From the NCBI GenBank assembly GCA_022601195.1, contig JAHZIX010000006.1:16629-80628 (forward strand): a stretch of DNA of 64,000 nucleotides, written 5' to 3'. Each line of letters begins with the position of its first letter. The first letter of the stretch is position 1. This document shows, one piece after another, positions 11,161 to 47,478 of this stretch. Made by a program: the position numbers and the translations under genes. The notes below the pieces were generated by a model. That model was given only the letters and a program-made list of their open reading frames with translations, did not search any database and was not told where the DNA came from. This DNA is from Deltaproteobacteria bacterium. GTDB lineage: Bacteria > Acidobacteriota > Thermoanaerobaculia > Multivoradales > JAHZIX01.

Positions 11161-12003
11161 TCATCCCTTCGGTACCGCTAGGACGTGCTTTGGGTAGAGG
11201 CGGCCCCCCTCTCGAACCGGCTCGATGGGAGTGAGGGTGTAGGAGGCGGCGGTGAGGAGCCGTTGGACTGCGGTGTCGTTGGCGGGATCGTGAACCTCGA
11301 TCAGCCAGGTGGGAGGAGTCTGCGAAGCGAGCAGGTCTCTGGCCCCTTCCAGCGCTTGGCCTTCTGCGCCTTCGATGTCCATCTTGATGAAGTTAGGGGG
11401 CGGGTGGTTGGAGACGAAATCATCCAGTCGGATCGTCGACACCTGCACGGTTTCTCCCTCTTCTTGTGCTCCCTCTTGTCGAGAGGAGCTTGGCTCGGAG
11501 TCGGCGACGAGGCTCGCTTCCGTGGTGGCTCTGCCGGTGCCGAGAAAAAGGGTCGAGTGACCGGTTTCGCTGGCTACGGCGAAGGACTCCAAAGAAACCT
11601 GCTGGCAACCGTTTTGTTCCAAAGCAAGCTCCAGGAGTCGCCGGTTTGCCTCGACCGGCTCGAAAGTGAAGACCCGCCCCTTCGGCCCCACGATGCGTGC
11701 GGCCAGCAAGCTCATATAGCCGTTGTGACCACCGATGTCGTAGCACACTCCGCCCGGGCGGAGATGGCGCACCATGGTCTCCTGAGCAGGCAATTCGTAG
11801 ACCCCGAGGCGTTGGGCCAGGCCTCCGGTGAATCGGGCGCCTCGCAGGGGGCCGGAGAGGACGCGATGGCGCCGCAGAGCCCGTCGGCAAATGGCCTCGA
11901 AGGGGCGGCGGAAGGGTCCCCACCAGAGCTTCCCAAGAAGCCTCTGGAGAGGGGTAATGGTCACAGAGGATTCCTGTTCCACAGGTGTCTGGGCAGCCTT
12001 CAT
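11161..12003 (-). CDS. FkbM-family methyltransferase
   Basis: GGVCYDIGGHNGYMSLLAA...NFIKMDIEGAEGQALEGA matches the Methyltransf_21 (FkbM) hallmarks. The likely start is MKAAQ at 12003, overlapping the upstream stop as ATGA; the ORF track offers an earlier start at 12042. Confidence 0.8.
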   Translation of the reverse strand: MKAAQTPVEQESSVTITPLQRLLGKLWWGPFRRPFEAICRRALRRHRVLSGPLRGARFTGGLAQRLGVYELPAQETMVRHLRPGGVCYDIGGHNGYMSLLAARIVGPKGRVFTFEPVEANRRLLELALEQNGCQQVSLESFAVASETGHSTLFLGTGRATTEASLVADSEPSSSRQEGAQEEGETVQVSTIRLDDFVSNHPPPNFIKMDIEGAEGQALEGARDLLASQTPPTWLIEVHDPANDTAVQRLLTAASYTLTPIEPVREGGRLYPKHVLAVPKG

Positions 12004-13433
12004 GCCTTCTCTTTTCGGTCTTGGGCCAAATGCAGCAGGCACTCAGCGACACGGCGGCCGCTGTTGCCATCGAGGGTATCCCCGAACATTTCGTGGAGGA
12101 AGCGACGACGGATCTCGCTGTCTCCCTGCGGCTCGCTGAGACCCCGGTACAGCATGCTCCTCATATCTTCGACACTTCTGGCCACCATTACCGCACCGCT
12201 CTGGGCCACAGGCCAATAGTGGTCGAAGCGAATGTGGCGCTCAAAGCCGAGGGCCCACGGTAGGTTCGAGCCGGGGGGGTCGAAATCGAGATTCATCACC
12301 GGTTTGTCGAACAGCAGCAGCTCGAGAGAAACGGTGGAGGCAGCGTTGATTCCAACGGTGGCGTGGCGCAGTAGGTTGGAGTAGAGAGCCAGGTCCTCGA
12401 AAAGGGGTGTTTGCCAACGAGGTTCCCATAGGACTTCCGGAAACACTACGTCCGGGAGGTTGCGTTTCGACAGTTCCAGCATCTCGGGGCTGGTGCCCTT
12501 GACGTAGGTCCGCACCACCAGTTGTGGCTTGTGGGGCAGATCCAGCTCTGCAAGGATGCGGATCACTTCCTCTACGTGGCGATGCTCTTCGAAAAAGTGA
12601 TTCGAGATTCCGGTGGTGTAGAGAACGAAGGGTCGATTGGCGTCGAGGCCAACCCGTTGACAGAGCTCCTCTCGGGAGAGCTCCAGATCCGATTTGAGAT
12701 GAAAGTCGAATTGGGGAGTGCCGGTCGTCCAAACGTTTTCCGCTTTGACCCTCGGGTAGATTTCCAGGAGCTGCTGGCGCATGTTCTCGTGCCATACCAG
12801 GTAGTGGTCGTAGGGCGGAAAGATGCGGCTACGGGAGGTGAGATTGTCCCAGGAGAAAATGAAGCCCGCGGTGGGGATGCCCATGCGCTTGGCGACTCGA
12901 ATGGGCAGCTCTCCGGCCTGGCCATGGATATGGGAGCCGTTAAACACTAGGTCCGGTTGGAGTTCTTCGAATAATTCGTCGAACCGGCGGGTCGGCCGCA
13001 GAGTGTAGCTCAGGCGGTTTTCCAGGGCGGTCAGGGCGTGGAGGCTCGGGGAGTTGGCGAGGAGTCTGGAGGCAGCTTTGATCAGCCACCGCTGCAAGCT
13101 CTTGCCCCGCTCGGCGGCGCGGCGATCCCGTAGCTCCCAATGGTTTCGGGCGACGGCGCTCCATAGCCACCGGTCGTGGGCATTCTCGGTGAGAGTTCGC
13201 AAATAGTAGGAGAGGCGCGGCTGCGGCAGCTCAGAGAGGGGCAGGATCGCCTCGACGAAGGGCCGGAAAGGTTCCACGAAGGCCTCGTCGTGAACCACCG
13301 TCAACACGGTGACCCGTGCCTGCTCGTGAAGGGTCCGCAGGGTCTCGGAGTAGAGGAAGTTGCGCACCGCCTCTCCGCGCGGGATCACCAGCACAACGTG
13401 GGGTCGCGAGGACTTGTTTTCTGGGGAAGTCAA
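12000..13433 (-). CDS. GT-B-fold surface-polysaccharide biosynthesis protein (TagF/KpsS-like glycosyl- or polyol-phosphate transferase); possible ulosonic-acid transferase
   Basis: 477 aa. RPFVLYTTGISNHFFEE resembles the TagF-family YAPTWR region. Its position immediately next to the NeuB-like/CMP-synthetase pair is the usual place for the cognate transferase. The assignment is weak. Confidence 0.4.
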   Translation of the reverse strand: MTSPENKSSRPHVVLVIPRGEAVRNFLYSETLRTLHEQARVTVLTVVHDEAFVEPFRPFVEAILPLSELPQPRLSYYLRTLTENAHDRWLWSAVARNHWELRDRRAAERGKSLQRWLIKAASRLLANSPSLHALTALENRLSYTLRPTRRFDELFEELQPDLVFNGSHIHGQAGELPIRVAKRMGIPTAGFIFSWDNLTSRSRIFPPYDHYLVWHENMRQQLLEIYPRVKAENVWTTGTPQFDFHLKSDLELSREELCQRVGLDANRPFVLYTTGISNHFFEEHRHVEEVIRILAELDLPHKPQLVVRTYVKGTSPEMLELSKRNLPDVVFPEVLWEPRWQTPLFEDLALYSNLLRHATVGINAASTVSLELLLFDKPVMNLDFDPPGSNLPWALGFERHIRFDHYWPVAQSGAVMVARSVEDMRSMLYRGLSEPQGDSEIRRRFLHEMFGDTLDGNSGRRVAECLLHLAQDRKEKA

Positions 13434-13491: not shown

Positions 13492-15381
13492 TCAAAGGAC
13501 CCCGAAACGTCCCAAGCGGTGGATGGCTTCCACAAAACCCGCGGCGTTGTGCAAATGCCCGCTCCAGATCTCCGGCACCCAGCTAAAGTCTTTGTGGGAG
13601 AGGAGCTCCATCAAGTCATCCCATTCCACGACGCCCTCACCGATCTGCAACCCTTCGCCATCGATTCCGCTGGCATCGGCGACGTGCAGATGACGCACAT
13701 GGGGCAGACACAGGTCGACGAAATCCTGCAGCTTGCGGTGATAGAAGTTGCAATAGAGCTGGGCGTGGGAGATATCCAGAGTCATCCCCAGGCCTAGCTC
13801 CTGGCAGAACTCCACCAATTCCTCCGGTCGGATGAAGACGTTCTGGACCCATTGCCCTCCCAGGTACCAAGGCCGGGGAGGAAGATTTTCCGGCAGCAGA
13901 ATGGTGCCCTTCGCATCGAGTCGGCGAAAGGCCTCCACGGCTCGACCGAGGAGCAGGTCGTGGCGCTCGATGGGCTCGTCCATGCTCATGCCGCCGACAT
14001 GGATGACCACGCCCACGGGACCGGTGAAATGAGCTTGCATGGCAGCAGCCTTGTCGATGGTGCGCTGCATCAGAGTGATGGCTTGTTCACGGATCTCGTC
14101 ATCGAAGGAACAAAGGTCCAGGAGTCGGCTGTCGGAAAACTCGGGAGCATGAATGAACAGCTGCTGCGGGTGAGGCGAGGGGGGAGCTTCGAAAGGGTGA
14201 TCCACATCCGCTTCGCTGAAATGAAGCTCCACTAATTTCGGCTTCTTCTCCAGAATCTCCTGGAGATCGTGGAAGCGGGCCTTGAGTCCCCAGGTACGGA
14301 CCAGCTTCGAGGGTTCCAGGACGCGATCCGTGCCGGTCGACAAGTCCCCCTCGGTGAAATATTCGTCCTCTTCGATATTGCGATCCAAACGAGTGCCGAG
14401 GAGCTCTTGCATGCGCTGGGGGGAGAGCCCTTTGCCGGGTCCCTTGACTCGCACCATTGCTCGCTCGACGACCGTGCCCGTTGCCAAGTCTCGAGACGCG
14501 ACCAGGCTCTTGCGCAGCACCTGGCGATTGAGCATCTCCATGGTGGAAAGGTGTTTGACTTGGTCCCCTAGAGCAATTTCTCCATGGCGAATATCGCGCA
14601 CCAACTTCTGGATCCCTGCCGGCTCCAGACTCGCTGGGTGGTCCGGTCCAGGGAGGGTGCGGTCCAGGGTGATGTGTTTTTCGATGATCACGGAGCCCAA
14701 GGCCAAGGCCAGCATGGGGACGGCAATGCCCCGTTCGTGGCTGCTGTAACCCACCGGCACGTCCAACTCCTTGAGTCGCTCCAGGTAGCGCAAGTTGAGG
14801 CTCTCGAAGGGGGCCGGGTAGGTGCTGACGCAGTGGAGCAAGGCGAAGGAGGCGCCGAGATTCTTGAGGTGGCTAACGGTTCTCTCGATCTCCTCCGGAG
14901 TCGCCATGCCCGTCGAGAGAATCAGGGGCTTGCCCGTAGCGGTCAATTTTTCCAGCAAGGGCAAATTGACCAGATCCGCAGAGGCCACTTTGTAGATGCT
15001 CACTCCGAGCTCTTCGAGAAACTCCAGGCTCGGGGCGTCCCAGGGAGTGCACATGAAGCGGATTCCCTTTTCGTCGCAGCGCGCCTTGATCTGGTGGAAG
15101 CCGTCGTCGGTGAGCTCCTGCTGTTGGAGGATCGGTAGAAGGTATTGAAAAGCCCACTCGGCAGAGTTGGGATCGTTGAGCAGCTTGGCCGGGTACAGGC
15201 TCTTGACGTTCCGTTTCTGAAATTTGACCGCGTCGGCACCGGCTTCCGCAGCGACATCGACCAGCTTTAGGGCCATGTCCAGGCTACCGTTATGGTTCAC
15301 GCCGGCCTCGGCGATGATGAAGCAGGGCTCGCCCGTTCCGATACGGCGATCTTCCAGTTGCAAATAAGGTGTCTCAGGCAT
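13492..15381 (-). CDS. NeuB-family ulosonic-acid synthase (PEP-condensing, with SAF domain) fused to a C-terminal xylose-isomerase-like TIM-barrel (AP_endonuc_2) domain
   Basis: The N-terminal CFIIAEAGVNHNGSLDMALKLVDVAAEAGADAVKFQ is the classic NeuB/PseI/LegI motif. The SAF region lies around SLVASRDLATGTVVERAMVRVKG. Residues ~350-629 carry LHVADASGIDGEGLQIGEGVVEWDDLMELL, typical of sugar-phosphate isomerase/epimerase TIM barrels. Confidence 0.8.
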   Translation of the reverse strand: MPETPYLQLEDRRIGTGEPCFIIAEAGVNHNGSLDMALKLVDVAAEAGADAVKFQKRNVKSLYPAKLLNDPNSAEWAFQYLLPILQQQELTDDGFHQIKARCDEKGIRFMCTPWDAPSLEFLEELGVSIYKVASADLVNLPLLEKLTATGKPLILSTGMATPEEIERTVSHLKNLGASFALLHCVSTYPAPFESLNLRYLERLKELDVPVGYSSHERGIAVPMLALALGSVIIEKHITLDRTLPGPDHPASLEPAGIQKLVRDIRHGEIALGDQVKHLSTMEMLNRQVLRKSLVASRDLATGTVVERAMVRVKGPGKGLSPQRMQELLGTRLDRNIEEDEYFTEGDLSTGTDRVLEPSKLVRTWGLKARFHDLQEILEKKPKLVELHFSEADVDHPFEAPPSPHPQQLFIHAPEFSDSRLLDLCSFDDEIREQAITLMQRTIDKAAAMQAHFTGPVGVVIHVGGMSMDEPIERHDLLLGRAVEAFRRLDAKGTILLPENLPPRPWYLGGQWVQNVFIRPEELVEFCQELGLGMTLDISHAQLYCNFYHRKLQDFVDLCLPHVRHLHVADASGIDGEGLQIGEGVVEWDDLMELLSHKDFSWVPEIWSGHLHNAAGFVEAIHRLGRFGVL

Positions 15382-15616: not shown

Positions 15617-16315
15617 TCAGGACTTGACCGCGCGGCGCAACTGAAAGAGCTGCTCCATGCGCGGAAGATCTTCGGGCTCGTCGATCTGGAACGAATCAAG
15701 GGGGTCCATCCGGTGAACGGCGATTCTACCACCTAGACGGTTGCCATGGCGACGCAGCACCCAGGGCTTGAAGAGATAGATCGAACCGTTTTCTAGTAGA
15801 TCTTCTCCCAGATCCTGGCGGCGTTGACGCCTCTCGAAGTCGTAGCTAACGGAGCTCAGGCCCTGGGCATTCAGGCGCCATACGAATCCGTGAACCGGGC
15901 AAGCGGAAAACAAGCTGTCTGCCCCTTCTCGGTGCAGGGTTTCGATGGCCCGGGCTATGTCTTCCGGTTGGCGCAGAGGGGATGTGGCTTGGAGGAAGAG
16001 GACTAGGTCTGGCACGTATCCCTCCTCCTGTTCCAGGTGATCCAATGCATGGACCAGAGCCGACTCGGAGCTGGCTTCGTCGCCACTGATGTCTACCGGG
16101 CGGTGGACGACTTCAGCACCGTACTCGCTGGCCACTCCGGCGATGACCTGGTCATCCGTGGAGACGACCACCCGGTCCACGGCGGAAGCTTGTCGAGCTT
16201 GCTCGATGCTATGGGCGACCAGAGGTTTTCCCGCTACCAGGTGGACGTTTTTTCCAGGTATTCCTTTGGAGCCCCCCCGGGCAGGGATCAGGGCGAGGAT
16301 GGAAGGTGCGCTCAA
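15617..16315 (-). CDS. CMP-ulosonic acid synthetase (acylneuraminate/KDO cytidylyltransferase family)
   Basis: ALIPARGGSKGIPGKN N-terminal motif, 232 aa. It is separated from the synthase gene by an unusual 235-bp gap. Confidence 0.85.
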   Translation of the reverse strand: MSAPSILALIPARGGSKGIPGKNVHLVAGKPLVAHSIEQARQASAVDRVVVSTDDQVIAGVASEYGAEVVHRPVDISGDEASSESALVHALDHLEQEEGYVPDLVLFLQATSPLRQPEDIARAIETLHREGADSLFSACPVHGFVWRLNAQGLSSVSYDFERRQRRQDLGEDLLENGSIYLFKPWVLRRHGNRLGGRIAVHRMDPLDSFQIDEPEDLPRMEQLFQLRRAVKS

Positions 16316-18105
16316 GGGGTCGCTCCTTTGTTCGGTTGATGGGATGGCTGCGGACTCTGGGGTGGCTTCGGTTCCTGGAGCGGCGAAGTTGCCGGCGTGG
16401 TGGAACCTCTTGGAAGCAATAGACCATCTGGAAGCGACAGGTCTTCTGGAAAGGACAGGTCATTTGGTAGCGAAAGGGCGAACAGCAGTAGGTGCTCGGA
16501 TCGAAGGATCTCGGTGGCAAAGCTCGGTGGGCTGGAGAAATCCTGCTGATGCTCCGAATCTACCGCCAGGTAACCGAGAGACCCGGGAAAGACTCTAGGT
16601 AGCTCCTCTCTCACTCTCTCTACCAGAGGCCAGTTGGTGACCCCTCGCACAACGTGCCGCTCCGCGTAATAGACGGGAATCATATTGGTTTGAGGAGACA
16701 ACACCACGGCGCCCTGAGGGATGGCCTGGCGGATTTCTTGGGCGTAGTCCAAGAGAGGGTGGGAGATCTCGCGGGGGCCGGAGGCGTTTACCCTTCCCTT
16801 GGCAACCAGGGGGAAAAGCAGGGTTGCTGGAAGAACGCCCAGGAGAGTCCAGCGGGCTGCCCTGCGTAGGGCAGGGGACGGGGAGACATCGCAGTGGGCT
16901 AGAGCGCTGGCTACTGCCACTCCGACGCTGCCGGCAAGAAACGGAGCGCCGATATACATCTCGTATTGGTGGTTATAGGCGTGGTTCTTCATCAAGAGGA
17001 ACCAAGCGACCCACATAGTGGCCAGTCCACCGAGAGCGTAACCTGCCTCGATGTTTGGTCGACGGCGGTGTAGCCAGCCAGCTATCACTGCCCATCCTGC
17101 CGCCGTAACCACGAGCTGTCCGTTGGCCCAGATTCGCTCCGCGAAGGTGAGAACAACCTGGGCTAGGGAAGGTTGTAGATAGCTGCCGTAGCTGTGGTGG
17201 TTGACCAGGGTATGCACCTGAAAAGCCTGCTCTGGGGAGTACTCGAGGCCGAGGCGAAAGGCGACGGTGTGCCAAAGGTCCTCCAACAGCCCCGGCGACT
17301 GCCATGCGTAGAGCCCCATGACCAGGAAGACGGTGACTCCGGCGGTGAGGCAGTAGCCAGCTGCCAAGACCAGGTCGAATCGCCGTCGCCGAAACAGCGC
17401 CAGGCCCAGCAGGCCCCCTGTGGCGAGGGCTGGTTCCCAGGAGGTTCCCACGGCGGCTGCCATGGAGGTGATTCCGAGCCAAGGCCAGGGGCTTTTCCAC
17501 TGGTTTTGTTTCGTCTGGTTTTGTTTCGTCTGGGTTCGTTTCGTCTGGGCCCGTTTCGTCGCTTCGACAAAGCCGAGCAAAGCGAGAAGGGTAAAGGCCA
17601 GGGCCAGATGGAGATGCATCACCATTTCTCCCTTGATGGCCACGATAGGCAAGCAAAGGAAGGTGAAGGCTCCTACCAGAGCAGCGCGTTGGCTCAGGCA
17701 GGCACGCAGCAGCCAACCGACAAGGGCAGCGTTTATGAGCAAAAGGAAGGTGGCGAAGCCACGGGCGGCCATGGGGGACTCCCCAAACACTGCAAAAACC
17801 CAGCTCAAGACAATGGGGAAAAGGGGGGGCCAATGAAGATAGGCATCCGGTTCCAGGCCCAATGGTGAGTGGTTCTGGATGGGTAGACCGCCCAGCCCGA
17901 ATACTCCGTGCTCCTGATATGCGTGGGCTATGGTCGCGAAGTGGGCCGACACCCAACCGTTGGTGACCAGGGGTTGAGAATAGCGAAGGCCGTGGCTGAT
18001 CAGGGTCAACAGGATCGCCAGAGCCAACCAGGCGAGCAGGATAGGTTCCCTGGTGGCGGCAGGGTTCCTGGCTTCCTCGGCCTCGGGCTGTCGGTGGGCT
18101 TCCAT
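16312..18105 (-). CDS. GT-C-fold polytopic membrane glycosyltransferase (ArnT/PMT-like, polyprenyl-P-sugar dependent)
   Basis: 597 aa, many TM helices, large hydrophilic C-terminal domain. An internal five-residue repeat TKRAQ/TKRTQ/TKQNQ/TKQNQ is encoded by a 15-bp tandem DNA repeat. The start overlaps the UbiA gene by 1 nt. Confidence 0.55.
   Translation of the reverse strand: MEAHRQPEAEEARNPAATREPILLAWLALAILLTLISHGLRYSQPLVTNGWVSAHFATIAHAYQEHGVFGLGGLPIQNHSPLGLEPDAYLHWPPLFPIVLSWVFAVFGESPMAARGFATFLLLINAALVGWLLRACLSQRAALVGAFTFLCLPIVAIKGEMVMHLHLALAFTLLALLGFVEATKRAQTKRTQTKQNQTKQNQWKSPWPWLGITSMAAAVGTSWEPALATGGLLGLALFRRRRFDLVLAAGYCLTAGVTVFLVMGLYAWQSPGLLEDLWHTVAFRLGLEYSPEQAFQVHTLVNHHSYGSYLQPSLAQVVLTFAERIWANGQLVVTAAGWAVIAGWLHRRRPNIEAGYALGGLATMWVAWFLLMKNHAYNHQYEMYIGAPFLAGSVGVAVASALAHCDVSPSPALRRAARWTLLGVLPATLLFPLVAKGRVNASGPREISHPLLDYAQEIRQAIPQGAVVLSPQTNMIPVYYAERHVVRGVTNWPLVERVREELPRVFPGSLGYLAVDSEHQQDFSSPPSFATEILRSEHLLLFALSLPNDLSFPEDLSLPDGLLLPRGSTTPATSPLQEPKPPQSPQPSHQPNKGATP
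17501..17560. repeat. 15-bp tandem repeat x4 (tggttttgtttcgtc; two perfect plus two diverged copies) inside GT-C coding sequence
   Basis: Read directly: tggttttgtttcgtc tggttttgtttcgtc tgggttcgtttcgtc tgggcccgtttcgtc. In frame this encodes TKxxQ pentapeptide repeats. Confidence 0.8.
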
Positions 18106-19100
18106 TACATGCCCGGAACGGTTGGTTCCAGGAGGCGATGCACCCAGGGGATATCGAAGTAGAGCAGCAGGAGGATCACTGCAGCGCAGCCGAGGATGGC
18201 GAACATCAGGTGGGGTTCTTTGTACAGTCGCTCCGGAGCTTGGGCGGCACTGTTGTTCTTGAAAGCTACTGAGAGGTATAAGGCCATCACCAAGGCAACA
18301 AAGGGAAAAGAGAGAATCAGCTCCAGGCGGTACCTCATGATGAAAGCGCCTAGGAAGAGCATGGCTGCCGAGCTATAGAACATCACTGAGATCAACAGCT
18401 TGTCCAGTGTGTAGACGCCGAAGGAGCGCCGGTAGCCGGTGGTCTGCGCCGTACTGCCCAACTGCCTCAGCTCGGCGTAGCGTTTGATGGCCATGAAGTA
18501 CGCCCCCACCATCCAATAGCTAAGCAATAGGGAGCCTGGGGGAGCTCCCAAGGGAGTGGCTATATACCAACCGGCGAGCATGCGCAGGGGGTTGTTGACC
18601 GCTTCGGACAGGGCGTCCAAGTAGGCGACTTCCTTGGTTCGAATGGGGCGGACGTTGTAGACCACCCCCATGAGCCAGAGGGCTCCGAGAGTCCAGGCCA
18701 ACCCCGGGGAGACAGAGGCTCCCAAAGCGATTCCGGCTGCGCCGAAGACGATCCATTGGAGGTACGCGAGAGGGATGTGTACCTGGCCACTTGGAACCGG
18801 CCGGTGGCGCTTAGTGGGGTGGAGGCGATCAAAAGGGGCGTCGAGGACCTCGTTCAAAGTGTAGTTGCTGGAGGCCACCAAACAGGTGGCCAGGAGCCCC
18901 ACGGCAATCGCTAGCCAGAGCTGGTTGCCGGCGGCTTGGGGAGCCAGGGTCAAGGCGACGACGATGCCCGGCAGCACGAAGACATTCTTTACCCAATGGT
19001 CGAGGCGCAGGATGGCTAGATGGCCCGCCAGAGAAGGACGGCTCGCTTCGGTGGGCCGGGAGGAGCTGCTGGGGGCAGGTGGTTGAGGGGGCTCGCTCAA
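18105..19100 (-). CDS. UbiA-superfamily prenyltransferase, decaprenyl-phosphate phosphoribosyltransferase (DPPR)-like
   Basis: NEVLDAPFDRLHPTKRHRPVPSGQV contains the NxxxDxxxD motif plus the R..RP.PSG segment of UbiA enzymes. A second acidic motif lies at YLDALSE. It has ~8 TM helices and 331 aa. Confidence 0.75.
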   Translation of the reverse strand: MSEPPQPPAPSSSSRPTEASRPSLAGHLAILRLDHWVKNVFVLPGIVVALTLAPQAAGNQLWLAIAVGLLATCLVASSNYTLNEVLDAPFDRLHPTKRHRPVPSGQVHIPLAYLQWIVFGAAGIALGASVSPGLAWTLGALWLMGVVYNVRPIRTKEVAYLDALSEAVNNPLRMLAGWYIATPLGAPPGSLLLSYWMVGAYFMAIKRYAELRQLGSTAQTTGYRRSFGVYTLDKLLISVMFYSSAAMLFLGAFIMRYRLELILSFPFVALVMALYLSVAFKNNSAAQAPERLYKEPHLMFAILGCAAVILLLLYFDIPWVHRLLEPTVPGM

Positions 19101-20008
19101 GGCTGCCTCGCGTAGAGTACGACCATCGAATCTCTAGGGTTTACAGGGATCACACGTTCATAAAGCCAAGCTAGTGGCGCGATGCGTTTGGCCATCCGGT
19201 TCACGAAGCCAACGGGGAGGTAGCGCTCCAGGCGTTCCGCCACGTATCCCACGGGGAAGAACCACCGAGCCCGGCGAAAGCCAATGGGGTGAAGGCCCGC
19301 TGCCTGCGCCGCACGGTCGAGGGATCGACGGTCGAAGTAGCCTACATGGGCGAGACGAAAGTGCCACCAACGATGCCGCAGTATCTTGGCTGCAAGGCTG
19401 CCCACATCCGGCGTTACGACCATCAATCGGCCGTTCGATTCCATGCCCTCGGCACAAGCGCGCAGCAAGGCCACCGGATCGGGGACATGCTCGATGACGT
19501 CGATCAGACAAACCGCGTCGAAGCGGTGTCCGCTCAACTTTGGGTGGGGATAGGTTCCTTGCAGAATTCCCACGCTGTGGAGTCGTTGGGCCGTTGCCAC
19601 GAGGGCTTGGCTTGGCTCGACCCCCTCGGTCTTCCAGCCTCGAAGATTGGCCTCGGCGATCAGGGCTCCAGCTCCAGCTCCGATGTCCAAGAGGGTCTTG
19701 GCTTCGGGAGCGGCCTTGCGCAGCACCTTCAGCAACCAGCTCATTTGCAAGCGCCGGCTTTCCTGACCTTCTTCATACCCGGAGTCTTCGAGTTCTTCAT
19801 AGAGACTCAGCAGCTTCGCCAATTCGCCGCCTTCAGCAAAGATAAAGCCGCAATCCGGACAACGGACAAGGGATAGGGTCAGGCCGTAGCGAGCATCGGT
19901 GATTTTGAGATCATCGGGTACCAGCTCCCGGTCGAGATTTCTCGGCTTCCAGGGCTGGCTCTGGAGCGAGCCGCAGATCCAGCAAGCGTTTTCTATGAGT
20001 CTTTCCAT
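19097..20008 (-). CDS. Class I SAM methyltransferase with N-terminal Zn-ribbon
   Basis: CWICGS...CPDCG forms a Cys4 ribbon. MTase motif I is LLDIGAGAGALIAEANLRG. Motif III/post is VCLIDVIEHVPDP...GRLMVVTPD. Confidence 0.75.
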   Translation of the reverse strand: MERLIENACWICGSLQSQPWKPRNLDRELVPDDLKITDARYGLTLSLVRCPDCGFIFAEGGELAKLLSLYEELEDSGYEEGQESRRLQMSWLLKVLRKAAPEAKTLLDIGAGAGALIAEANLRGWKTEGVEPSQALVATAQRLHSVGILQGTYPHPKLSGHRFDAVCLIDVIEHVPDPVALLRACAEGMESNGRLMVVTPDVGSLAAKILRHRWWHFRLAHVGYFDRRSLDRAAQAAGLHPIGFRRARWFFPVGYVAERLERYLPVGFVNRMAKRIAPLAWLYERVIPVNPRDSMVVLYARQP

Positions 20009-20056
20009 GGTACCCGCGGATCATGGCACATTTGCCTTCTGCTACACTCGCCCGCC

Positions 20057-21466
20057 ATGAAACTCAGTGTGTTGATTCCCGTGTACAACGAGCGCTATCT
20101 CGTGGCAGAGCTGGTGCGCCGAGTCTTGGTGGCACCGCTTCCAGAAGGGGTCGGACGGGAGATTATCATCGTCGATGATGGCTCCCGGGACGGTACTGTG
20201 GAAGTGGTCGCGAAGATGGAGAGCGAGCACCCTGACCAGATTCGTTTCATTCAGCACGAAAAGAACCAAGGCAAGGGTGCCGCGGTTCGGACTGCGATTC
20301 GCGAGGCCAGCGGCGATTTCGCCATCTTTCAGGACGCCGACTTGGAATACGATCCCCGCGACTACGAGCGACTCCTGGAGCCTCTTTTGTCCGGTCAGGC
20401 GGATGTGGTCTACGGCTCCCGCTTCCTTCCTTCTCAACGTCGCCGTGTTCTCTATTTTTGGCACAGCCTGGGCAACCGCTTCCTCACCCTTCTGTCCAAT
20501 ATGTTTACCAATCTCAATCTCACCGACATGGAAACCTGCTACAAGGTTTTTCGCACCGAGGTCCTAAAGACGATCCCCATTCGCAGTAACGATTTCGGCC
20601 TCGAGCCGGAGATCACCGCCAAGGTTTCCAAGCGGGGGCTGCGTCTCTACGAAGTTCCCATTAGCTATGACGGGCGAACCTATCTGGAAGGCAAGAAGAT
20701 CGGTTGGAGGGATGGCTTACGGGCCCTCTACGTGATCCTCAAGTATCACTTCATCGACGATCTCTACGATGAGAAAACCGGCCATGCGATCCTCTCGGAC
20801 CTGTCTCGGGCGCACCGGTTCAATCGTTGGATGGCAGACATCATCCGCCCCGAGTTGGGCCACTCAGTGCTCGAAGTGGGAGCTGGAATCGGCAATCTCA
20901 CCTCCCAGCTACTGCCTCGGGAACGGTACATCGCTAGCGATTTCGACGATCTTCACCTCGATGTCCTGCAAAATCTGGCCATGAATCGGGTCGGCCTCGA
21001 CGTCCATCGTCTCGATGCCTCAGAGGCCGAGGGCTATGCAGGCTTTCGGGGCGATATCGACTCTATAGTCTGCCTCAATGTTCTCGAGCACATTCCCCAA
21101 GCGGCGGCCTCGTTGAAGAATTTTTACGATTCCTTGGCCCCAGGGGGCCGAGTGATCATCTTGGTGCCTCAGGGGAAATGGCTCTTCTGTCCTTTGGACG
21201 AGGCTTTGGAGCACGTCAAGCGCTATTCGCCCCAGGAGCTGCGAGAGGAACTGGAGGCAGCGGGTTTCGAGGTGGAAAAGGTCCGTCATTTCAACCGCAT
21301 CGGAGTGATCGGCTGGTTCTTGAACGGCAAATTGCTGCGTCGGGTTCAGCTGGCCAAGATTCAGCTGAAGATTTACGACTCCTTGGTGTGGCTCTGGCGA
21401 GGCATCGATCGGTTCTTACCGTGGCATGGACTCTCGGTCATCGCCGTGGGCCGCAAGCCGGAATAG
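20057..21466 (+). CDS. GT2 polyprenyl-phosphate sugar synthase (ArnC/DPM1/GtrB-like) fused to C-terminal class I SAM methyltransferase domain
   Basis: The N-terminal MKLSVLIPVYNE...IIVDDGSRDGT...IFQDADLEYDP...VVYGSRF matches the DPM1/ArnC family. C-terminal residues ~260-469 carry SVLEVGAGIGNLTSQLL...SIVCLNVLEHIPQ...GGRVIILVPQ (MTase motifs I and III). Confidence 0.8.
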   Translation: MKLSVLIPVYNERYLVAELVRRVLVAPLPEGVGREIIIVDDGSRDGTVEVVAKMESEHPDQIRFIQHEKNQGKGAAVRTAIREASGDFAIFQDADLEYDPRDYERLLEPLLSGQADVVYGSRFLPSQRRRVLYFWHSLGNRFLTLLSNMFTNLNLTDMETCYKVFRTEVLKTIPIRSNDFGLEPEITAKVSKRGLRLYEVPISYDGRTYLEGKKIGWRDGLRALYVILKYHFIDDLYDEKTGHAILSDLSRAHRFNRWMADIIRPELGHSVLEVGAGIGNLTSQLLPRERYIASDFDDLHLDVLQNLAMNRVGLDVHRLDASEAEGYAGFRGDIDSIVCLNVLEHIPQAAASLKNFYDSLAPGGRVIILVPQGKWLFCPLDEALEHVKRYSPQELREELEAAGFEVEKVRHFNRIGVIGWFLNGKLLRRVQLAKIQLKIYDSLVWLWRGIDRFLPWHGLSVIAVGRKPE

Positions 21467-22846
21467 TCGCCGTCTCGAAGTTTCCAGGCCGGCGGCGGCG
21501 TAGAGACAGAGGATCGGCGTAATGGGAACGCGAAATCGGTGGTAGGACTCCGGGCCGGCAGAAATGAGTACCAGATAAGCGGCGACTCCCCAGGCACAAA
21601 GGTCGAAGACTTCGACCCGGCGGTGGCGAAGGGATGTCCACCACCAGCGGGCTCCACCCCAGTAGAGGACCGCCAAAAAGGCCAGCAGTACCAGAGCGAC
21701 CAGAAAGCTCATCGATCGTTCTAGAACCCACCGCCTCAGGTAGTCCCTCGGCTTCAAGCGAAACAGATCTCCCAGCGGTCCGGAGCTGGGAATGGGAATG
21801 CCGAGCAACCGCATCACGGTGTGTTCACCGGTTCCCCCGAGGGTTGCCGCCATGCCCACCAGCTGCATTTTCGCGACTTCTGCCGGATGCTGAGCCAAAA
21901 TGGCTAGACCTTCTTCCTTCCACCGTTCGGTGAGCTCTTCTTCAGTGAAGTCACGGGTTTCCGGATGAAGCTCCCGGTACCAACCCTTTCCCAGCTGATG
22001 GCGGGCTTCCTCGAGGCTGATGCCATCTCGCAAGGAGATGACTTTGGCGCCTCGGAAGAACAACAGATCCAAGCCGACGATTTGGCTGATATCGCCGCTA
22101 CCGGTGAGGCGATAGTTGCGCAGTTGCCAGCCTCCCAACAGTCCCACTACGGGAATAAGGAAGGCCAAGAGAGCCGCGCAGGTCTTTTGAGGCGAGAGAT
22201 GGCGCCGCCACGCTGCCACCAGGATCCAGCCGGCGACAGCGGGCGCCAAGTAGTAGCTGATCGGCCTCACCAAGGTCGCCACGGCCAGCAACAGGCCGAT
22301 GCCGCCGGCCCACAGAACCCCCCGATTTCCCTTGGCAAAACGGAGGGCGCAAAACAACATGGCAACCATGAGGAATGCGAAGAGGGTCTCGGTGAGTAGA
22401 AGGAGCGAGTGGGAAAAAGAGGCTGCATCGAGGGTGAGAAGGCCCGCGGCGGCGATTCCCACCGGTGTGGAGAAACGCTCTTGGGTGAGGCGAAAAAGAA
22501 GCAGTATCGTTGCCAGGCTAAGGAGGATCTGCCAGGCGATACCCGCTGCTGGTCTTTCTCCTGCCAAAGCATAGGCGGGAGCCAGAAAAATCGGGTAGCC
22601 GGGTGTGCGACGAGTCTCCGGGACGTTGGGGCGGTCGGCGGACACGGAGAACCTTCCCGCTTGCAACAGAGAGCGGGTGGTCTCGTGATAGGCGACCGAG
22701 TCGGTGTAGACGAAACGGGCCGGGTCCTGGGTCACCACGACCCCCCACACAAGAACCTTGAGAACTGCCGAAATGGCCAGCAGCCCCAACAGGCATTTGG
22801 GCAAGCCTCCCCTGGGCAGTTTCACTGGGTTACCCCTCCTCGGCAT
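21416..22846 (-). CDS. GT-C-fold glycosyltransferase, ArnT (GT83)/PMT-like
   Basis: The first periplasmic loop FVYTDSVAYHETTRSLLQ aligns with the ArnT TDETRYAEISREML motif (T-D-x-x-x-Y-x-E-x-x-R-x-x-L), and there are more than 10 TM helices. The probable start is at Met34 (MPRRGNPVKL); the ORF extends to 22945. Confidence 0.7.
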   Translation of the reverse strand: MPRRGNPVKLPRGGLPKCLLGLLAISAVLKVLVWGVVVTQDPARFVYTDSVAYHETTRSLLQAGRFSVSADRPNVPETRRTPGYPIFLAPAYALAGERPAAGIAWQILLSLATILLLFRLTQERFSTPVGIAAAGLLTLDAASFSHSLLLLTETLFAFLMVAMLFCALRFAKGNRGVLWAGGIGLLLAVATLVRPISYYLAPAVAGWILVAAWRRHLSPQKTCAALLAFLIPVVGLLGGWQLRNYRLTGSGDISQIVGLDLLFFRGAKVISLRDGISLEEARHQLGKGWYRELHPETRDFTEEELTERWKEEGLAILAQHPAEVAKMQLVGMAATLGGTGEHTVMRLLGIPIPSSGPLGDLFRLKPRDYLRRWVLERSMSFLVALVLLAFLAVLYWGGARWWWTSLRHRRVEVFDLCAWGVAAYLVLISAGPESYHRFRVPITPILCLYAAAGLETSRRRLFRLAAHGDDRESMPR

Positions 22847-23970
22847 TTCCCCTCTTCGGCGGCGAGGCGCAAGACTTTTTCGACTCTTCCGCCGGCTACC
22901 TGCCAATTGAGATCCGACTCGTAGCGTCTGCGGCTGTCGATACACAACCGGTGATAGCGCTGCGGTTGGGCCATCAAGCGAGCGATGGCTTCGGAAAAAG
23001 CTTCCGCCATGGCCCCGGCGGGGAGAACCACGCCGGAGGTACCGTTCTTCACGGAAGTAGCGATGCCTCCGACATCTCGGGTCACGACCGGGAGGCCAAA
23101 GGCTGCAGCCTCGGCGGTGACGATAGGAGAGGGGTCGAAGCGAGCTGGGTGAAGCAACAGATGCGACCTGCGGTAGAGCTCTAGGTAGGTCTCGAGCTCT
23201 TGAGATCGGCTCTTTCGAAACGGGCCCACAAAGCGAATATGCTCCTCATCGGATCCCGAAAGCCCACAGATCGTCAACCGAGTGGGGTTGCCGGAGCGGT
23301 TCAGCTGTCGAGTCGTCTCCATGGCGATATCGATACCTTTGCGGTGGAAGTTCCGGCCCACGGTGAGGAGCTCCAAAGGCTCTGCCAGGGACCGCGGAGG
23401 GGGAGCCCCATCGGGAACCTTGTCTTGGGGCAACGCCGAGGGATTGGGAAAGGTATGAATACGGCGCGCATCGAAGCCGTAGTCGCGAGCCAAGCCTTCG
23501 GCGGACCAACCACTATGGGTGATCAAGTGGGAGCAGCGGGCAAAGGCGCGATGTTCCTGCCAAATATTCAGTTTCATGGCCAAATCTCCGAACTCCTCAT
23601 ATCCACTTTGGTAGCCACGGAAACTGGTGTCCAAGCGGAAGACGCAAGGGGTAGAGCCGCGGTAAAAAACCAACGATGGCTGAAACAGAGTGAACACGAC
23701 ATCTGCTTTGGCTGCCTCTTCGGCCCGGTTCAGCCCCGCTGATGCCCGCCGGGTCAGGCTGTGGGGGAACTTGGCGTATCGCTTCTTGATCCCTCGCTGG
23801 TAAAGGCGTTTCAAGACTCTCTCCCAGGCGCTGGGTGGGTGTCTAAAGGGCCCGACGAGACTCATGTCATGGCCTCGTTCCGCCAGAGAACGATAGAAGT
23901 TGAAGTCGGCGCCGCTCGCAGCGTCCGGGTCTCTGGGGTCGTGGCGATAGGCGGAATAGAGGATTCTCAT
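22822..23970 (-). CDS. Glycosyltransferase family 4
   Basis: 382 aa. HLLLHPARFDPSPIVTAEAAAFGLPVVTRDVGGIATSV is a GT4 C-domain motif. Confidence 0.8.
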   Translation of the reverse strand: MRILYSAYRHDPRDPDAASGADFNFYRSLAERGHDMSLVGPFRHPPSAWERVLKRLYQRGIKKRYAKFPHSLTRRASAGLNRAEEAAKADVVFTLFQPSLVFYRGSTPCVFRLDTSFRGYQSGYEEFGDLAMKLNIWQEHRAFARCSHLITHSGWSAEGLARDYGFDARRIHTFPNPSALPQDKVPDGAPPPRSLAEPLELLTVGRNFHRKGIDIAMETTRQLNRSGNPTRLTICGLSGSDEEHIRFVGPFRKSRSQELETYLELYRRSHLLLHPARFDPSPIVTAEAAAFGLPVVTRDVGGIATSVKNGTSGVVLPAGAMAEAFSEAIARLMAQPQRYHRLCIDSRRRYESDLNWQVAGGRVEKVLRLAAEEGKCRGGVTQ

Positions 23971-26971: not shown

Positions 26972-28261
26972 TCAATCACCTCGTCCGTGAGCTTGGTGCC
27001 ACTGATGATGCACCAAAAAGCTGCCATGGCGTTGGCCGATGGGGGCCTGTCCACTGCCGAAGGCATTGCCTTCCACCAGATTGAATTGGAAGGCCTCTTT
27101 GACATTGTCGGAGAACTCTCCATTCACGGAGCAACCTAAAGAGACGGTGTAGACGCCAGCCGCTAGGGGAATCGAAGGCATTTGGCAGTGGATTTTTCCT
27201 TCGGGCGGCAACGTTTCGAATCGTCCGACATCAGTGAAGTGAGTCGATAGAGTAAAGAGTAGATTGCCGATGTGGTCAGCGACGTGTATTTGGGCCAAGA
27301 CTTTGATCAGAGGTTTGCCGTCGGTGGAGCGGTAGCCGATCTCGAAGACACCCGAATCGCCGGAGCGTAGGGAACCGCTTTGGGTACCGTCCGGGTCGGT
27401 CAGTCGAATGCTTTGGAAGCGCATCGGGCCCGCCCCACGGCGATCGGTCCGATCTCCTAGAGGTATTGCTAGCTGAGTGGAGACCTTGGCCATGTATTGG
27501 GTGATGACTTCGTCGGTAGGACCGTAGGCCTCCAAACGGCCCCTTTCCAGCATTAAGGTGGTCGGGCAAAGGTGGGAAATAGCACCTAGATTGTGACTGA
27601 CCAAGAGCACGGTGCGACCTTGTCCAGCCACCTCTCCCATTTTACCCAGGCATTTTTTTTGAAAGGCGGCATCTCCCACTGCCAGCACTTCATCTACCAG
27701 TAGAATCTCCGGTTCCAAATGAGCAGCTACGGCAAATGCTAGCCGTAGGTACATGCCGCTCGAGTAGTGCTTGACCGGAGTGTCGATGAACTTTTCGAGC
27801 TCCGCGAAGTCAACGATCTCCTCGAACTTCTTCAGAATCTCGCCCCGGCCCATGCCGAGGATCGCCCCATTCAGAAAGATATTCTCTCTACCGGTGAGCT
27901 CCGGGTGAAAGCCGGTGCCGACCTCGAGCAGGGAGCCGACTCGGCCTCGGATTCGCGCTAGCCCGGCGGAAGGCTCGGTGATACGTGAGAGAATTTTGAG
28001 CAGTGTGCTCTTGCCTGCTCCATTGCGGCCGATAATACCCACCACCGCCCCTTCCGGAATGGCGAAAGAGATTTCCTGGAGGGCCCAGAAACTTTCGTGG
28101 AGGTCCGCTGCTCCGGTCGCATGACCCTTGAGTAAGTTTCCTACCCGCCGAAACGGGCTCGCTGCTAGCTCGACGAGCGTTTCTCGCAAAGTGCGGTACC
28201 GCTCCTGCTTGCCAATGAAGTAGCGCTTGCCGAGATCTTCCGCGAGGATGGCGTCATTCAT
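26972..28261 (-). CDS. wzt: ABC transporter ATP-binding protein Wzt with C-terminal carbohydrate-binding (Wzt_C-like) domain
   Basis: GRNGAGKSTLLKIL is Walker A, YSSGMYLRLAFAVA is the signature motif and LLVDEVLAVGD is Walker B. A ~165-aa C-terminal extension (FQSIRLTDPDGTQSGSLRSGDSGVFEIGYRS...) follows. The start MNDAIL lies 2 nt after the wzm stop; the ORF track extends spuriously to 28585. Confidence 0.9.
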   Translation of the reverse strand: MNDAILAEDLGKRYFIGKQERYRTLRETLVELAASPFRRVGNLLKGHATGAADLHESFWALQEISFAIPEGAVVGIIGRNGAGKSTLLKILSRITEPSAGLARIRGRVGSLLEVGTGFHPELTGRENIFLNGAILGMGRGEILKKFEEIVDFAELEKFIDTPVKHYSSGMYLRLAFAVAAHLEPEILLVDEVLAVGDAAFQKKCLGKMGEVAGQGRTVLLVSHNLGAISHLCPTTLMLERGRLEAYGPTDEVITQYMAKVSTQLAIPLGDRTDRRGAGPMRFQSIRLTDPDGTQSGSLRSGDSGVFEIGYRSTDGKPLIKVLAQIHVADHIGNLLFTLSTHFTDVGRFETLPPEGKIHCQMPSIPLAAGVYTVSLGCSVNGEFSDNVKEAFQFNLVEGNAFGSGQAPIGQRHGSFLVHHQWHQAHGRGD

Positions 28262-28263
28262 GA

Positions 28264-29160
28264 TTAGACGACATCCGCAAAAGTCTTTTCCATGCGCCGA
28301 AAGTACAGCAAGCCGGTCACCAGGAGCACCAGGGTTGCGATCGAAGAGGTCAGCACCAGACTGAATATCGGGGCGTCGAGTCCGAGCAGAGCCCATCGGA
28401 ATCCCTCGACGACACCGACCATGGGGTTCAATGCATAGATCCACACGGGGATGCCCATCTCCTCGAGCTTGGGCGCGACCTCTGCGGTGGAGTAGATCAC
28501 TGGCGTGACGAAAAGGAGGAGCTGGGTAAAGAAAGGGATGACATAGCGGATATCTCGGAATTGGACGTTCAAGGCAGAAAGCCAAAGGCCTGCCCCGAGT
28601 GCGCTACCGAAGGCCAGGAGAGCCAGGAACGGCAACCAAACAACCATCGCCGTGGGGCGGGTGCCGTAGTAAGCCATCATGGGGAAGAGAATCAGAAACG
28701 CTAGAACGAAATCAACGGCGGGAGCAAGGGCTGAAGCGATCGGGATGGCGAGACGAGGAAAATAAACTTTCTTGATCAGGTTTTGGCTTCCCACCAGGCT
28801 ATTGGACGATTGGGTCAAGCCGAGGGAAAAGAAAGTCCAGGGGAGTAGTCCCGCATAGGAAAAGATGGGGTAGGCGATTCCCTCTGGCCCCAACTGGGCC
28901 ACCCGCCCGAAGAAGATGGTGAACACGACCATGGTCAATAAAGGCTGGAGAATCGCCCAGGAGGCACCAAGGACCGTCTGCTTGTATCGAACCTTGATGT
29001 CCCGCCACACCAAGAAGTAGAGCAGGGCTCGGTAGTCCCACAACTCGCCCAACCGCAAGGAAACCCAGCCGGAAGAGGGCTGGATGAGGGTCTCGGCAAT
29101 GGCCGAGATACGCGGTTGATTATCCATGAGCTGCGGCTTACTTTCGGGAGGCAAAATCAA
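28264..29160 (-). CDS. wzm: ABC-2 type polysaccharide export permease Wzm
   Basis: LWDYRALLYFLVWRDIKVRYKQTVLGASWAILQPLLTMVVF is the canonical Wzm/KpsM/TagG N-terminus. Six TM helices. Confidence 0.85.
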   Translation of the reverse strand: MILPPESKPQLMDNQPRISAIAETLIQPSSGWVSLRLGELWDYRALLYFLVWRDIKVRYKQTVLGASWAILQPLLTMVVFTIFFGRVAQLGPEGIAYPIFSYAGLLPWTFFSLGLTQSSNSLVGSQNLIKKVYFPRLAIPIASALAPAVDFVLAFLILFPMMAYYGTRPTAMVVWLPFLALLAFGSALGAGLWLSALNVQFRDIRYVIPFFTQLLLFVTPVIYSTAEVAPKLEEMGIPVWIYALNPMVGVVEGFRWALLGLDAPIFSLVLTSSIATLVLLVTGLLYFRRMEKTFADVV

Positions 29161-32002: not shown

Positions 32003-32725
32003 CTAGGGTATGGGTTGATTGTTCACGACCCTCGTAGGGTTCGTCGTGGTCAACAATGTGGCTACTTCTGGGCTCCAGCGGTCCGCTACATGGTCGTAGG
32101 CTCGCAATAGCCCTGGGGGGCGACGCTCAATTCCGTGGCAGTCGCTGGCGATAAAGTGAGCGAGGGATGTCTCGATGAGCCGCCGGGCCGATTCCCGTGG
32201 ACGACGCCCGAATTCTCCCGTGAGGCTCATCGCAGTAATTTGTAGTCGTGCGCCCAGGTGAACCAGGTTTTCCAATCGGGGTAAATCCCCAGCTAGCCAT
32301 GGCAGCAGCTCCGGGTGCGCAAGAATTGGCCTCCAGCCGCCAACTACCAACTCATGGACGATATGTTCCGGCTCCGGCCCTGTTCCGGACCGCGAAAATT
32401 CGATCAGCAGATATTGGGTGTCTGCGATGGGAAGAAAACCGCCGCCGGGCCAAGATTCGGCTTCTGACAACCATTCCGAATCGACTCGGATCTCTCCGCC
32501 AGGCAACAGAGTGGGACTCTCCCCAATCTCCTCTTGAAGGCGGTTGCGGAGCTCCGTCAAGCTCTGCCGGTCTCCATTCCACCAGCGAGGGTGACGCTGG
32601 TGGGGAGTCGCAACCATAGCGGTACAGCCCTGTTCACCAGCGAAACGAACCATGGCGACGGCTTCTTCGAAGCTATCGGCGCCATCGTCGATCCCGGGGA
32701 GGATGTGGCAATGAAGATCGATCAT
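32003..32725 (-). CDS. PHP-family protein-tyrosine phosphatase (CpsB/YwqE type; Wzb functional analogue)
   Basis: MIDLHCHILPGIDDGA N-terminus and ...IASDCHG... metal-binding residues. 240 aa. Confidence 0.9.
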   Translation of the reverse strand: MIDLHCHILPGIDDGADSFEEAVAMVRFAGEQGCTAMVATPHQRHPRWWNGDRQSLTELRNRLQEEIGESPTLLPGGEIRVDSEWLSEAESWPGGGFLPIADTQYLLIEFSRSGTGPEPEHIVHELVVGGWRPILAHPELLPWLAGDLPRLENLVHLGARLQITAMSLTGEFGRRPRESARRLIETSLAHFIASDCHGIERRPPGLLRAYDHVADRWSPEVATLLTTTNPTRVVNNQPIP

Positions 32726-47159: not shown

Positions 47160-47478
47160 GTATCCAGGATTATGTACCAGGAGCCTGTAGTGAAAGTCTC
47201 TTGTTTGCGAGAGCGAGCGATCTTTCGGTGAATCCAGAAGGCAAACCGGAGCCAAACCTGGGGTTCGTCGAGGACCTCGCTGCGCCGGGTCGCGGAGTCG
47301 CTGGAAGAGACCCGCTCGCCGCCAGAGAGAGTCGCACTACAGGCTCCTTGGCCAGGGTTTCCTGCTCGATCGTTCGCCGATGTTCGGCTCCAGAATACTC
47401 CCCTCCGCTACGGGACCTGGGCGGTGAGGGGAATTCCGTTGAGGCTCGCAGACTCTATGTGTAGATTCGGCTATACTC

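Follow-up and report, generated by a model that had tools for sequence, protein, structure and literature searches.

A NeuB synthase fused to an endonuclease IV-like barrel: a possible bifunctional ulosonic-acid-9-phosphate synthase/phosphatase

Introduction

How does a bacterium make an ulosonic acid for its exopolysaccharide when the locus offers only a cytidylyltransferase and a NeuB-type synthase that carries an additional barrel? The question is raised by a stretch of 64,000 nucleotides (hereafter, the window) from a member of the Acidobacteriota filed as Deltaproteobacteria bacterium (GenBank assembly GCA_022601195.1, contig JAHZIX010000006.1, positions 16,629 to 80,628). On its reverse strand, a gene at 13492..15381 encodes a protein of 629 aa in which a NeuB domain, a SAF domain and a xylose-isomerase-fold TIM barrel follow one another (the NeuB-SAF-TIM fusion). 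Our answer is tentative and we hold it with slightly less than even confidence: read from its sequence, the fusion would be a bifunctional ulosonic-acid-9-phosphate synthase/phosphatase. What is new here is the part played by the barrel; the anatomy itself is as given in a preliminary description of the same DNA.

NANS and the characterized synthases of 2-keto-3-deoxynononic acid 9-phosphate (KDN-9-P) condense phosphoenolpyruvate (PEP) with sugar 6-phosphates, which is mannose 6-phosphate (Man-6-P) for the KDN-9-P synthases, and require a separate downstream phosphatase (PMC6200933). A NeuB with an extra barrel has already been met in a pathogen. Anderson et al. (2022, PLoS Pathog) reported that the KL1 and KL2 capsule loci of Serratia marcescens start with neuA and neuB, the latter an open reading frame (ORF) of 2241 bp encoding 746 aa, with pfam03102 and an extra COG1082 sugar-phosphate isomerase/epimerase domain (PMC9000132). 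KL1/KL2 strains contained KDN together with about 5% N-acetylneuraminic acid (Neu5Ac), a ratio of about 20:1, and deletion of neuB abolished both sialic acid and capsule, which were restored by neuB in trans (PMC9000132). We found no enzymology of the extra domain in that paper or in a 2025 Serratia follow-up, nor any further paper addressing it, and our literature search returned none on a NeuB joined to a xylose isomerase-like domain, or on COG1082 together with a sialic acid synthase.

Results

The fusion gene has an ATG start, a stop codon at 13492-13494 and, in the ORF listing, a single reading frame free of internal stops. Pfam recognizes NeuB at residues 40-276 (E 3.3e-81), SAF at 291-347 and AP_endonuc_2 at 410-620 (E 1.9e-23). 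Four segments can be delimited, all on the reverse strand: the NeuB catalytic barrel (14542..15330, about residues 18-280; PF03102), a domain of the NANS-like clade that condenses PEP with an aldose or aldose phosphate; the SAF or antifreeze-like domain (14341..14511, residues 291-347; PF08666, E 2.9e-8); an inter-domain linker of variable sequence and low model confidence (14296..14340, residues 348-362); and the xylose-isomerase-fold TIM barrel, with a His-rich metal site like those of endonuclease IV (Endo IV) and MJ1311 (13495..14295, residues 363-629), which is the proposed ulosonate-9-phosphate phosphatase. The two-domain anatomy of the preliminary description is thus borne out by the matches to PF03102, PF08666 and AP_endonuc_2, and so is its C-terminal TIM barrel, as PF01261 scores above gathering and the (beta/alpha)8 fold matches superfamily members. 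A frameshift separating the domains into two ORFs had been named there as one observation that would speak against a fusion; it was looked for, and only the single ORF was found. Three independent contigs encode the identical protein, which makes a frameshift or an artefact of assembly unlikely, and with hundreds of full-length homologues besides we rejected it.

The linker columns are variable in an alignment of 31 homologues and in a 30-member alignment of the barrel. In the full-length AlphaFold2 model (predicted TM score, pTM, 0.56) the per-residue confidence (pLDDT) falls below 50 at residues 349-351, and the linker is also the point at which the gene is split in two other loci, L073 and L083, described below.

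What kind of synthase is the N-terminal module? The match to PF03102 (272.8 bits, cut-off 22.1) spans model positions 1-241 of 241, and E25, K53, Q55, H215, E234, H236 and D247, aligned with the catalytic and metal/PEP-binding residues of NmeNeuB (1xuu), are invariant in the 31 homologues. The module had been called canonical, a label that does not hold: it stays below the cut-offs of the NeuB_NnaB equivalog TIGR03569 (348.1 bits, cut-off 399.65) and of the PseI model TIGR03586 (247.4 bits, cut-off 340.25), it has lost Arg314 and it is closest to animal NANS. The SAF motif is VKGPGKG in the fusion vs. VKRPGNG in NmeNeuB (1xuu), Arg314 being replaced by Gly. At this position Gly is invariant in the 31-homologue alignment and Gly or Ser occurs in the wider family; NANS is also devoid of the Arg, and PDB entry 4ipi has Ala ("VKAPGNG"). 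Arg314 contacts the N-acetyl group of N-acetylmannosamine (ManNAc), and it is reportedly essential in NmeNeuB, a result attributed to Joseph and colleagues in 2013.

The similarity scores go in the same direction. The N-domain is 38-39% identical to vertebrate Neu5Ac-9-P synthases (NANS) over 338 residues (229-239 bits), vs. 140-155 bits to NmeNeuB, CjPseI and BsSpsE, of which NmeNeuB gives the 155. Seven diverged fusions behave alike, with 204-255 bits and 35-39% identity to vertebrate NANS vs. 136-199 bits to the same three bacterial enzymes. This comparison covered vertebrate NANS, NmeNeuB, CjPseI and BsSpsE; the queries for human NANS and E. coli KdsC served only as probes, their matches being verified by curated models or real database sequences. 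Fusions and NANS have the motifs GYSGHE(R/T)GI and DH.ASLEP in common. A strict scan for class-specific residues between fusions and NeuB/PseI/SpsE gave seven positions only (R57, L85, D136, L172, Y212, I219, K291), with no obvious phosphate-binding signature among them. Judged by its sequence, the N-domain is nearer to animal NANS than to bacterial NeuB, PseI or SpsE.

For the C-terminal barrel, a profile of 30 members (35-76% identity) matched MJ1311 at E 2.8e-18 and endonucleases IV at 1.6e-6, 0.016 and 0.019; UlaE (0.13) and D-tagatose 3-epimerase (0.24) came behind both, at non-significant values. At the level of the fold, the scores do not separate the Endo IV/MJ1311 group from isomerases and epimerases. 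The earlier assignment of the barrel to the sugar-phosphate isomerases/epimerases (AP-endonuclease-2) therefore stands for the superfamily and gives way at the subfamily, where the profile is nearer to MJ1311 and Endo IV. The best match, MJ1311 of Methanocaldococcus jannaschii (PDB 3WQO, "D-tagatose 3-epimerase-like protein"), is, however, a stand-alone archaeal protein. None of the nfo models called the barrel, and a CbiR phosphodiesterase model matched it weakly (E 6.8e-4, 19 bits, cut-off 105).

The candidate metal ligands are H411, H461, E498, D536, H539, H566, E576 and E604; R369, E385, D392, N499, D569 and Q579 are invariant besides. We take the ligands of the trinuclear centre of E. coli Nfo to be H69, H109, E145, D179, H182, H216, D229, H231 and E261. 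Onto these, H411 falls at H69, H461 at H109, E498 at E145, D536 at D179, H539 at H182 and E604 at E261, all six invariant in the barrel alignment, while H566 (H216) is conserved in at least 90% of it. The barrel thus keeps seven Endo IV ligands out of nine, which indicates an Endo IV-like site and not an Endo IV. Epimerases have a single-metal (Mn) site of Glu-Asp-His-Glu, and the additional histidines at the positions of H411 and H461 are typical of Endo IV and not of epimerases. CbiR is a precedent for the hydrolysis of small-molecule phosphoesters in the xylose-isomerase fold. From the conserved Endo IV ligand positions and the weak CbiR match, the site looks like a bi- or trinuclear phosphoesterase centre. 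As the barrel is fused to a sugar synthase, a small molecule would be expected as its substrate, and not DNA as in Endo IV.

If the barrel is a phosphatase, does it stand where other synthases have one? No HAD domain was matched by Pfam or NCBIfam-type models in the fusion or in the neighbouring cytidylyltransferase, and among the cytidylyltransferases adjoining fusions (median length 249 aa) 0 of 51 has one. Several loci of the Anaerolineae have a second module, made of a stand-alone NeuB of ~290 aa and a cytidylyltransferase of 390-457 aa with a C-terminal KdsC-family HAD phosphatase. These short NeuBs are also NANS-like (37-42% identity to NANS, vs. 111-139 bits to bacterial NeuB/PseI/SpsE), and all six that were scored, in five loci, neighbour a cytidylyltransferase-KdsC protein. 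The KdsC-type domain reaches 107.6 bits with TIGR01670 (cut-off 106.95) and 76-83 bits with the KDN-9-P phosphatase model. Locus L014 has a further cytidylyltransferase-HAD fusion and L047 a separate KdsC-like ORF of 138 aa. The distribution of 0/51 against 6/6 is as expected if the barrel has taken the place of the phosphatase by non-orthologous replacement. We propose that the barrel does the work of the HAD-type KdsC and KDN-9-P phosphatases without belonging to them.

The same data bear on a competing explanation, in which the barrel is a sugar or sugar-phosphate isomerase/epimerase that makes the acceptor of NeuB (fructose 6-phosphate to Man-6-P, or N-acetylglucosamine 6-phosphate to ManNAc-6-P) and channels a scarce aldose. 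Ketose 3-epimerases, UlaE and xylose isomerase do share the superfamily, the barrel and the Glu-Asp-His-Glu positions with it. However, the epimerases trail in the profile search, H411 and H461 are of the Endo IV type, and a NANS-like synthase would be left without a phosphatase, whereas its stand-alone sisters pair with a KdsC-type domain. In addition, Ensifer has a separate ManC-type mannose-6-phosphate isomerase/GDP-mannose pyrophosphorylase gene beside its module, preceding the cytidylyltransferase. We regard an isomerase as unlikely, though as an alternative to be taken seriously.

The two modules of the Anaerolineae stand side by side in L014, L020, L023, L027, L031, L033, L035 and other loci of this group, with the fusion and a plain cytidylyltransferase beside the short NeuB and the cytidylyltransferase-KdsC protein. 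These loci also contain a bifunctional 3'-phosphoadenosine-5'-phosphosulfate synthase (ATP sulfurylase plus adenosine-5'-phosphosulfate kinase), several sulfotransferases, an aminoacyl-tRNA synthetase-like ligase, GNAT, AAC(3)-like and DUF4910 proteins, which suggests sulfated, acylated ulosonic-acid polymers.

The fusion is not a peculiarity of this genome. The preliminary description had contrasted it with the known NeuB/PseI/LegI enzymes as single-module synthases, but it belongs to a large family, and the Serratia case has been published (PMC9000132). More than 120 clusters (59-94% identity) have the same three-domain architecture, and when one genome was scanned for each species, full-length relatives appeared in at least 596 GTDB species genomes. 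Most of these carriers are Chloroflexota (Anaerolineae), and the others include Acidobacteriota, Kiritimatiellae, Nitrospirota, Thermodesulfobacteriota, Planctomycetota, Armatimonadota, Saccharibacteria and other bacteria of the candidate phyla radiation (CPR), Gammaproteobacteria, Arcobacteraceae and one Woesearchaeote. A second subfamily of ~750 aa adds an N-terminal CBS pair (CBS-NeuB-SAF-TIM) and occurs in cultured Ensifer canadensis, Parvularcula marina, Comamonas aquatica, Xanthomonas campestris, Methylobacillus and Synechococcus KORDI-100. The databases annotate the fusion family as "N-acetylneuraminate synthase family protein". The architecture is widespread and in databases already, and its genetic connection to KDN has been published.

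When the barrel was the sole query of an exhaustive search, 658 clusters at 50% identity came out of 1.84 billion representatives. The best 150 of these 658 comprise 86 fused to NeuB, 22 complete stand-alone barrels and, for the rest, mostly fragments. Where the context of a stand-alone barrel could be read, it lies directly 3' of a NeuB gene. In L073 the two are parted by a spacer filled with stop codons, with a GGTGAT Shine-Dalgarno-like motif; in L083 a stop codon and two codons precede the ATG of the barrel gene; in P0389 the barrel gene overlaps the NeuB stop codon; and in P0375 it is downstream of a NeuB+SAF gene. Because the stand-alone barrels are directly downstream of NeuB and others are fused to it, the barrel is a dedicated partner of such NeuBs, fused or translationally coupled. 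That the barrels form a small family linked to NeuB counted, for us, in favour of the phosphatase.

A further split was left out of this count: in L080 (3560-3680), from a Saccharibacteria metagenome-assembled genome, a lone in-frame TAG interrupts the NeuB-barrel frame and homology goes on in-frame after it, so this TAG may come from a sequencing error, mark a pseudogene or be read through.

The barrel might also be a non-catalytic module with a structural, oligomerization or regulatory role. The full-length model has no defined domain interface, and the proteobacterial subfamily did acquire regulatory CBS domains. Yet about 20 polar residues of the catalytic face, candidate metal ligands among them, are invariant across 35-76% identity, and the barrel is also retained as a separate, translationally coupled gene. 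Given these invariant active-site residues, we judge a non-catalytic role to be highly improbable.

In the window, the gene directly upstream of the fusion (15617..16315, reverse strand) encodes a cytidylyltransferase of 232 aa, a CMP-ulosonate synthetase of the acylneuraminate family devoid of a phosphatase domain (PF02348, E 1.1e-28); with the PseF model it scores 129 bits, below cut-off. Downstream, also on the reverse strand, lies a partner of 455-477 aa (12000..13433, or 12000-13367 with the start of the gene caller) that has weak matches only, among them one of E 1.2e-11, under the cut-off, to a glycosyltransferase domain of the BFO_1060 family. Its homologues accompany the fusion in 19 loci, and the 477-aa protein has no similarity to DUF6716, Capsule_synth, Maf or the Ensifer neighbours. 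To see in it an ulosonic-acid transferase is speculative.

These genes belong to an exopolysaccharide locus of ~47 kb (475-47255) with GT2 and GT4 transferases, methyltransferases (at least seven genes), a single cytidylyltransferase and genes for export. Family scans of this stretch found no NeuC, PseB/C/H/G, LegB/C/H/G, dehydratase, aminotransferase or HAD gene, and the absence of NeuC and other precursor genes, asserted earlier, holds for it. The cytidylyltransferase and the fusion are the sole ulosonate genes here, and this also holds for the loci of Xanthomonas, Comamonas, Synechococcus and Ensifer, a minimal set which fits an acceptor taken from central metabolism.

Such an absence would also suit a barrel that acts at the front end, as a hydrolase freeing the aldose for a NeuB that uses free sugars, either mannose from Man-6-P or by cleavage of a nucleoside diphosphate (NDP)-sugar in place of NeuC, LegG or PseG. 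An Endo IV/MJ1311-like metal site suggests phosphoester hydrolysis, genes of the NeuC, LegG and PseG types are absent from the locus, and the dehydratase and aminotransferase genes found in a minority, 12 and 9 loci (clusters 15 and 20), would give NDP-linked precursors. Against this, the N-domain lacks Arg314 and resembles the phosphosugar-using NANS more than the free-sugar NeuB and PseI, genes that modify NDP-sugars are missing from most loci, and the sister synthases devoid of a barrel pair with a phosphatase of the product type (KdsC or KDN-9-P-like). We consider a front-end hydrolase to be quite unlikely.

Our survey of gene neighbourhoods comprised 83 loci. A cytidylyltransferase is present in 67 of them, in 49 directly upstream of the fusion, and a KpsC/KpsS-like Capsule_synth protein lies 3' of the fusion in 32. 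A PtmA-like short-chain dehydrogenase/reductase (SDR; cluster 2, 44 of 83) and a Gfo/Idh/MocA oxidoreductase (cluster 4, 32 of 83) are not explained by the pathway that we propose, nor is the company of the module in Saccharibacteria and a Woesearchaeote (L079, L080, L082, L073), where DUF386 (YhcH/YjgK/YiaL), an aldo/keto reductase and an SDR occur.

In Caldilineaceae (L004), Xanthomonas campestris (L087) and Comamonas aquatica (L089) the fusion is found in flagellar clusters near Maf/MptE-like proteins, flagellin or FliD/FliS, which implies that the same ulosonic acid is used to glycosylate flagellin. In Xanthomonas, a pyruvyl transferase gene stands between cytidylyltransferase and fusion. 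In the marine picocyanobacterium Synechococcus sp. KORDI-100 (L088, CP006269.1 2408443-2426731) the CBS-NeuB-SAF-barrel gene accompanies two KpsC/KpsS-like Capsule_synth, three DUF6716 and three sulfotransferase genes; related proteins run to hundreds of members in clusters from marine metagenomes.

The exopolysaccharide locus of the window mixes Wzx/Wzy-type parts with a part of an ABC transporter. To the former belong Wzy_C proteins (475-1980 and 40746-42170), a CpsB phosphatase (32003-32725), Wzc (32725-35016), Wza (35013-35858) and a Bac_transf initiating transferase (45759-47255), and to the latter a Wzt with a Wzt_C domain (26972-28585). A UbiA-family prenyltransferase (18105-19100) adjoins two PMT_2/GT-C-like membrane proteins (16312-18105 and 21416-22945), an arrangement at 16312-22945 that can be likened to systems of a polyprenyl-phosphate-sugar donor and a GT-C transferase. 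A protein of 597 aa in this region contains the low-complexity run QTK(R/Q)(T/N)QTKQNQ.

Discussion

We propose that the NeuB+SAF module would condense PEP with Man-6-P, and to a minor extent with ManNAc-6-P, giving KDN-9-P and inorganic phosphate, and that the multi-metal centre of the barrel would hydrolyse the 9-phosphate to free KDN. The cytidylyltransferase encoded upstream would then convert KDN and CTP to CMP-KDN, the sugar would be transferred by the downstream protein of 455-477 aa or by Capsule_synth or Maf-type transferases, and methylation or sulfation might come last. The domain anatomy, the conserved fusion and metal-ligand positions, the likeness to NANS, the lost Arg314, the gene neighbourhoods and the lack of amino-sugar precursor genes are observed; which aldose is used, that the intermediate is phosphorylated and that the barrel acts as a phosphatase we infer. 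Man-6-P is the most likely acceptor and ManNAc-6-P a possible minor substrate. Of the roles offered earlier for the barrel (supply of the aldose, dephosphorylation, or isomerization of the product), the evidence favours dephosphorylation and the other two less.

This order of reactions, from phosphosugar to 9-phosphate, dephosphorylation and activation with CMP, is that of NANS with NANP, of BT1714 with BT1713 in Bacteroides thetaiotaomicron and of the Prymnesium KDN-9-P synthetase, and it fits the gene content here. Those systems employ a separate phosphatase of the HAD superfamily, whereas here HAD is missing and a metallo-barrel is fused to the synthase. In this sense, the xylose-isomerase-fold barrel with its Endo IV-like centre could be a phosphatase for sugar-acid phosphates of a class so far unrecognized, one that stands in for the HAD enzyme and permits a two-gene route from Man-6-P and PEP to CMP-KDN, a proposal to which we give not quite an even chance.

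As to the product, the earlier suggestion of a non-standard keto-deoxy-ulosonic acid gives way to the known sugar: by analogy with the measurements in Serratia, ordinary KDN is more likely than an exotic sugar. The Serratia NeuB is like the fusion in having a NeuB domain with a COG1082 barrel, neuA as neighbour and a capsule locus devoid of other sialic-acid genes. It differs in its 746 aa, and would probably belong to the CBS-NeuB-SAF-TIM subfamily, which is ~40% identical to this fusion. Serratia was not among the best 120 matches of our homology search. These data speak to one more alternative, that the product of the condensation is then dehydrated, epimerized or isomerized by the barrel, the outcome being an unusual ulosonic acid. 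The barrel has no profile similarity to dehydratase subfamilies, and plain KDN and Neu5Ac were recovered from S. marcescens with its COG1082-bearing NeuB (PMC9000132). Since Serratia yields plain KDN, a product-modifying barrel is very unlikely.

Several points weigh against a synthase/phosphatase. The complementarity of HAD and TIM domains comes mainly from one lineage, the Anaerolineae, with the two modules adjacent, so that both synthases there could be relying on the HAD domain. Within the metal site, D229 and H231, present in Endo IV (Nfo; PDB 1QTW, 5ZHZ, 2X7V), have no strict counterpart in the barrel: where MJ1311 retains the D-x-H pair of the third metal site (DDEH), the fusion family has a loop D/x-G-E-G, in which E576 is invariant. 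The Glu-Asp-His-Glu positions of epimerases are present, and isomerase chemistry is thus compatible with the site. We know of no sugar-phosphate monoesterase with a xylose-isomerase fold, the precedents Endo IV and CbiR being diesterases. With its pTM of 0.56, the full-length model does not place the domains relative to each other with confidence. Finally, the orthology of the Serratia NeuB is deduced from its described domain content and its length of 746 aa.

If the barrel is indeed the missing phosphatase, it would explain how KDN arises from capsule and flagellin-glycosylation loci equipped only with neuA and neuB, including those of the infection-associated KL1/KL2 capsules of S. marcescens, and it would be a new catalytic activity for the xylose-isomerase/Endo IV superfamily. 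The fusion would then provide a simple sequence marker to predict KDN-type sialylation in uncultured bacteria and archaea, and would correct the generic labels "N-acetylneuraminate synthase family protein" and "sugar phosphate isomerase/epimerase". Should the barrel be an isomerase instead, the fusion would still mark a self-contained ulosonic-acid route that bypasses NeuC. With the phosphatase confirmed, KDN-type sialic acids would extend to hundreds of lineages, from Chloroflexota, Acidobacteriota, CPR bacteria and DPANN archaea to marine Synechococcus, Xanthomonas and clinical Serratia.

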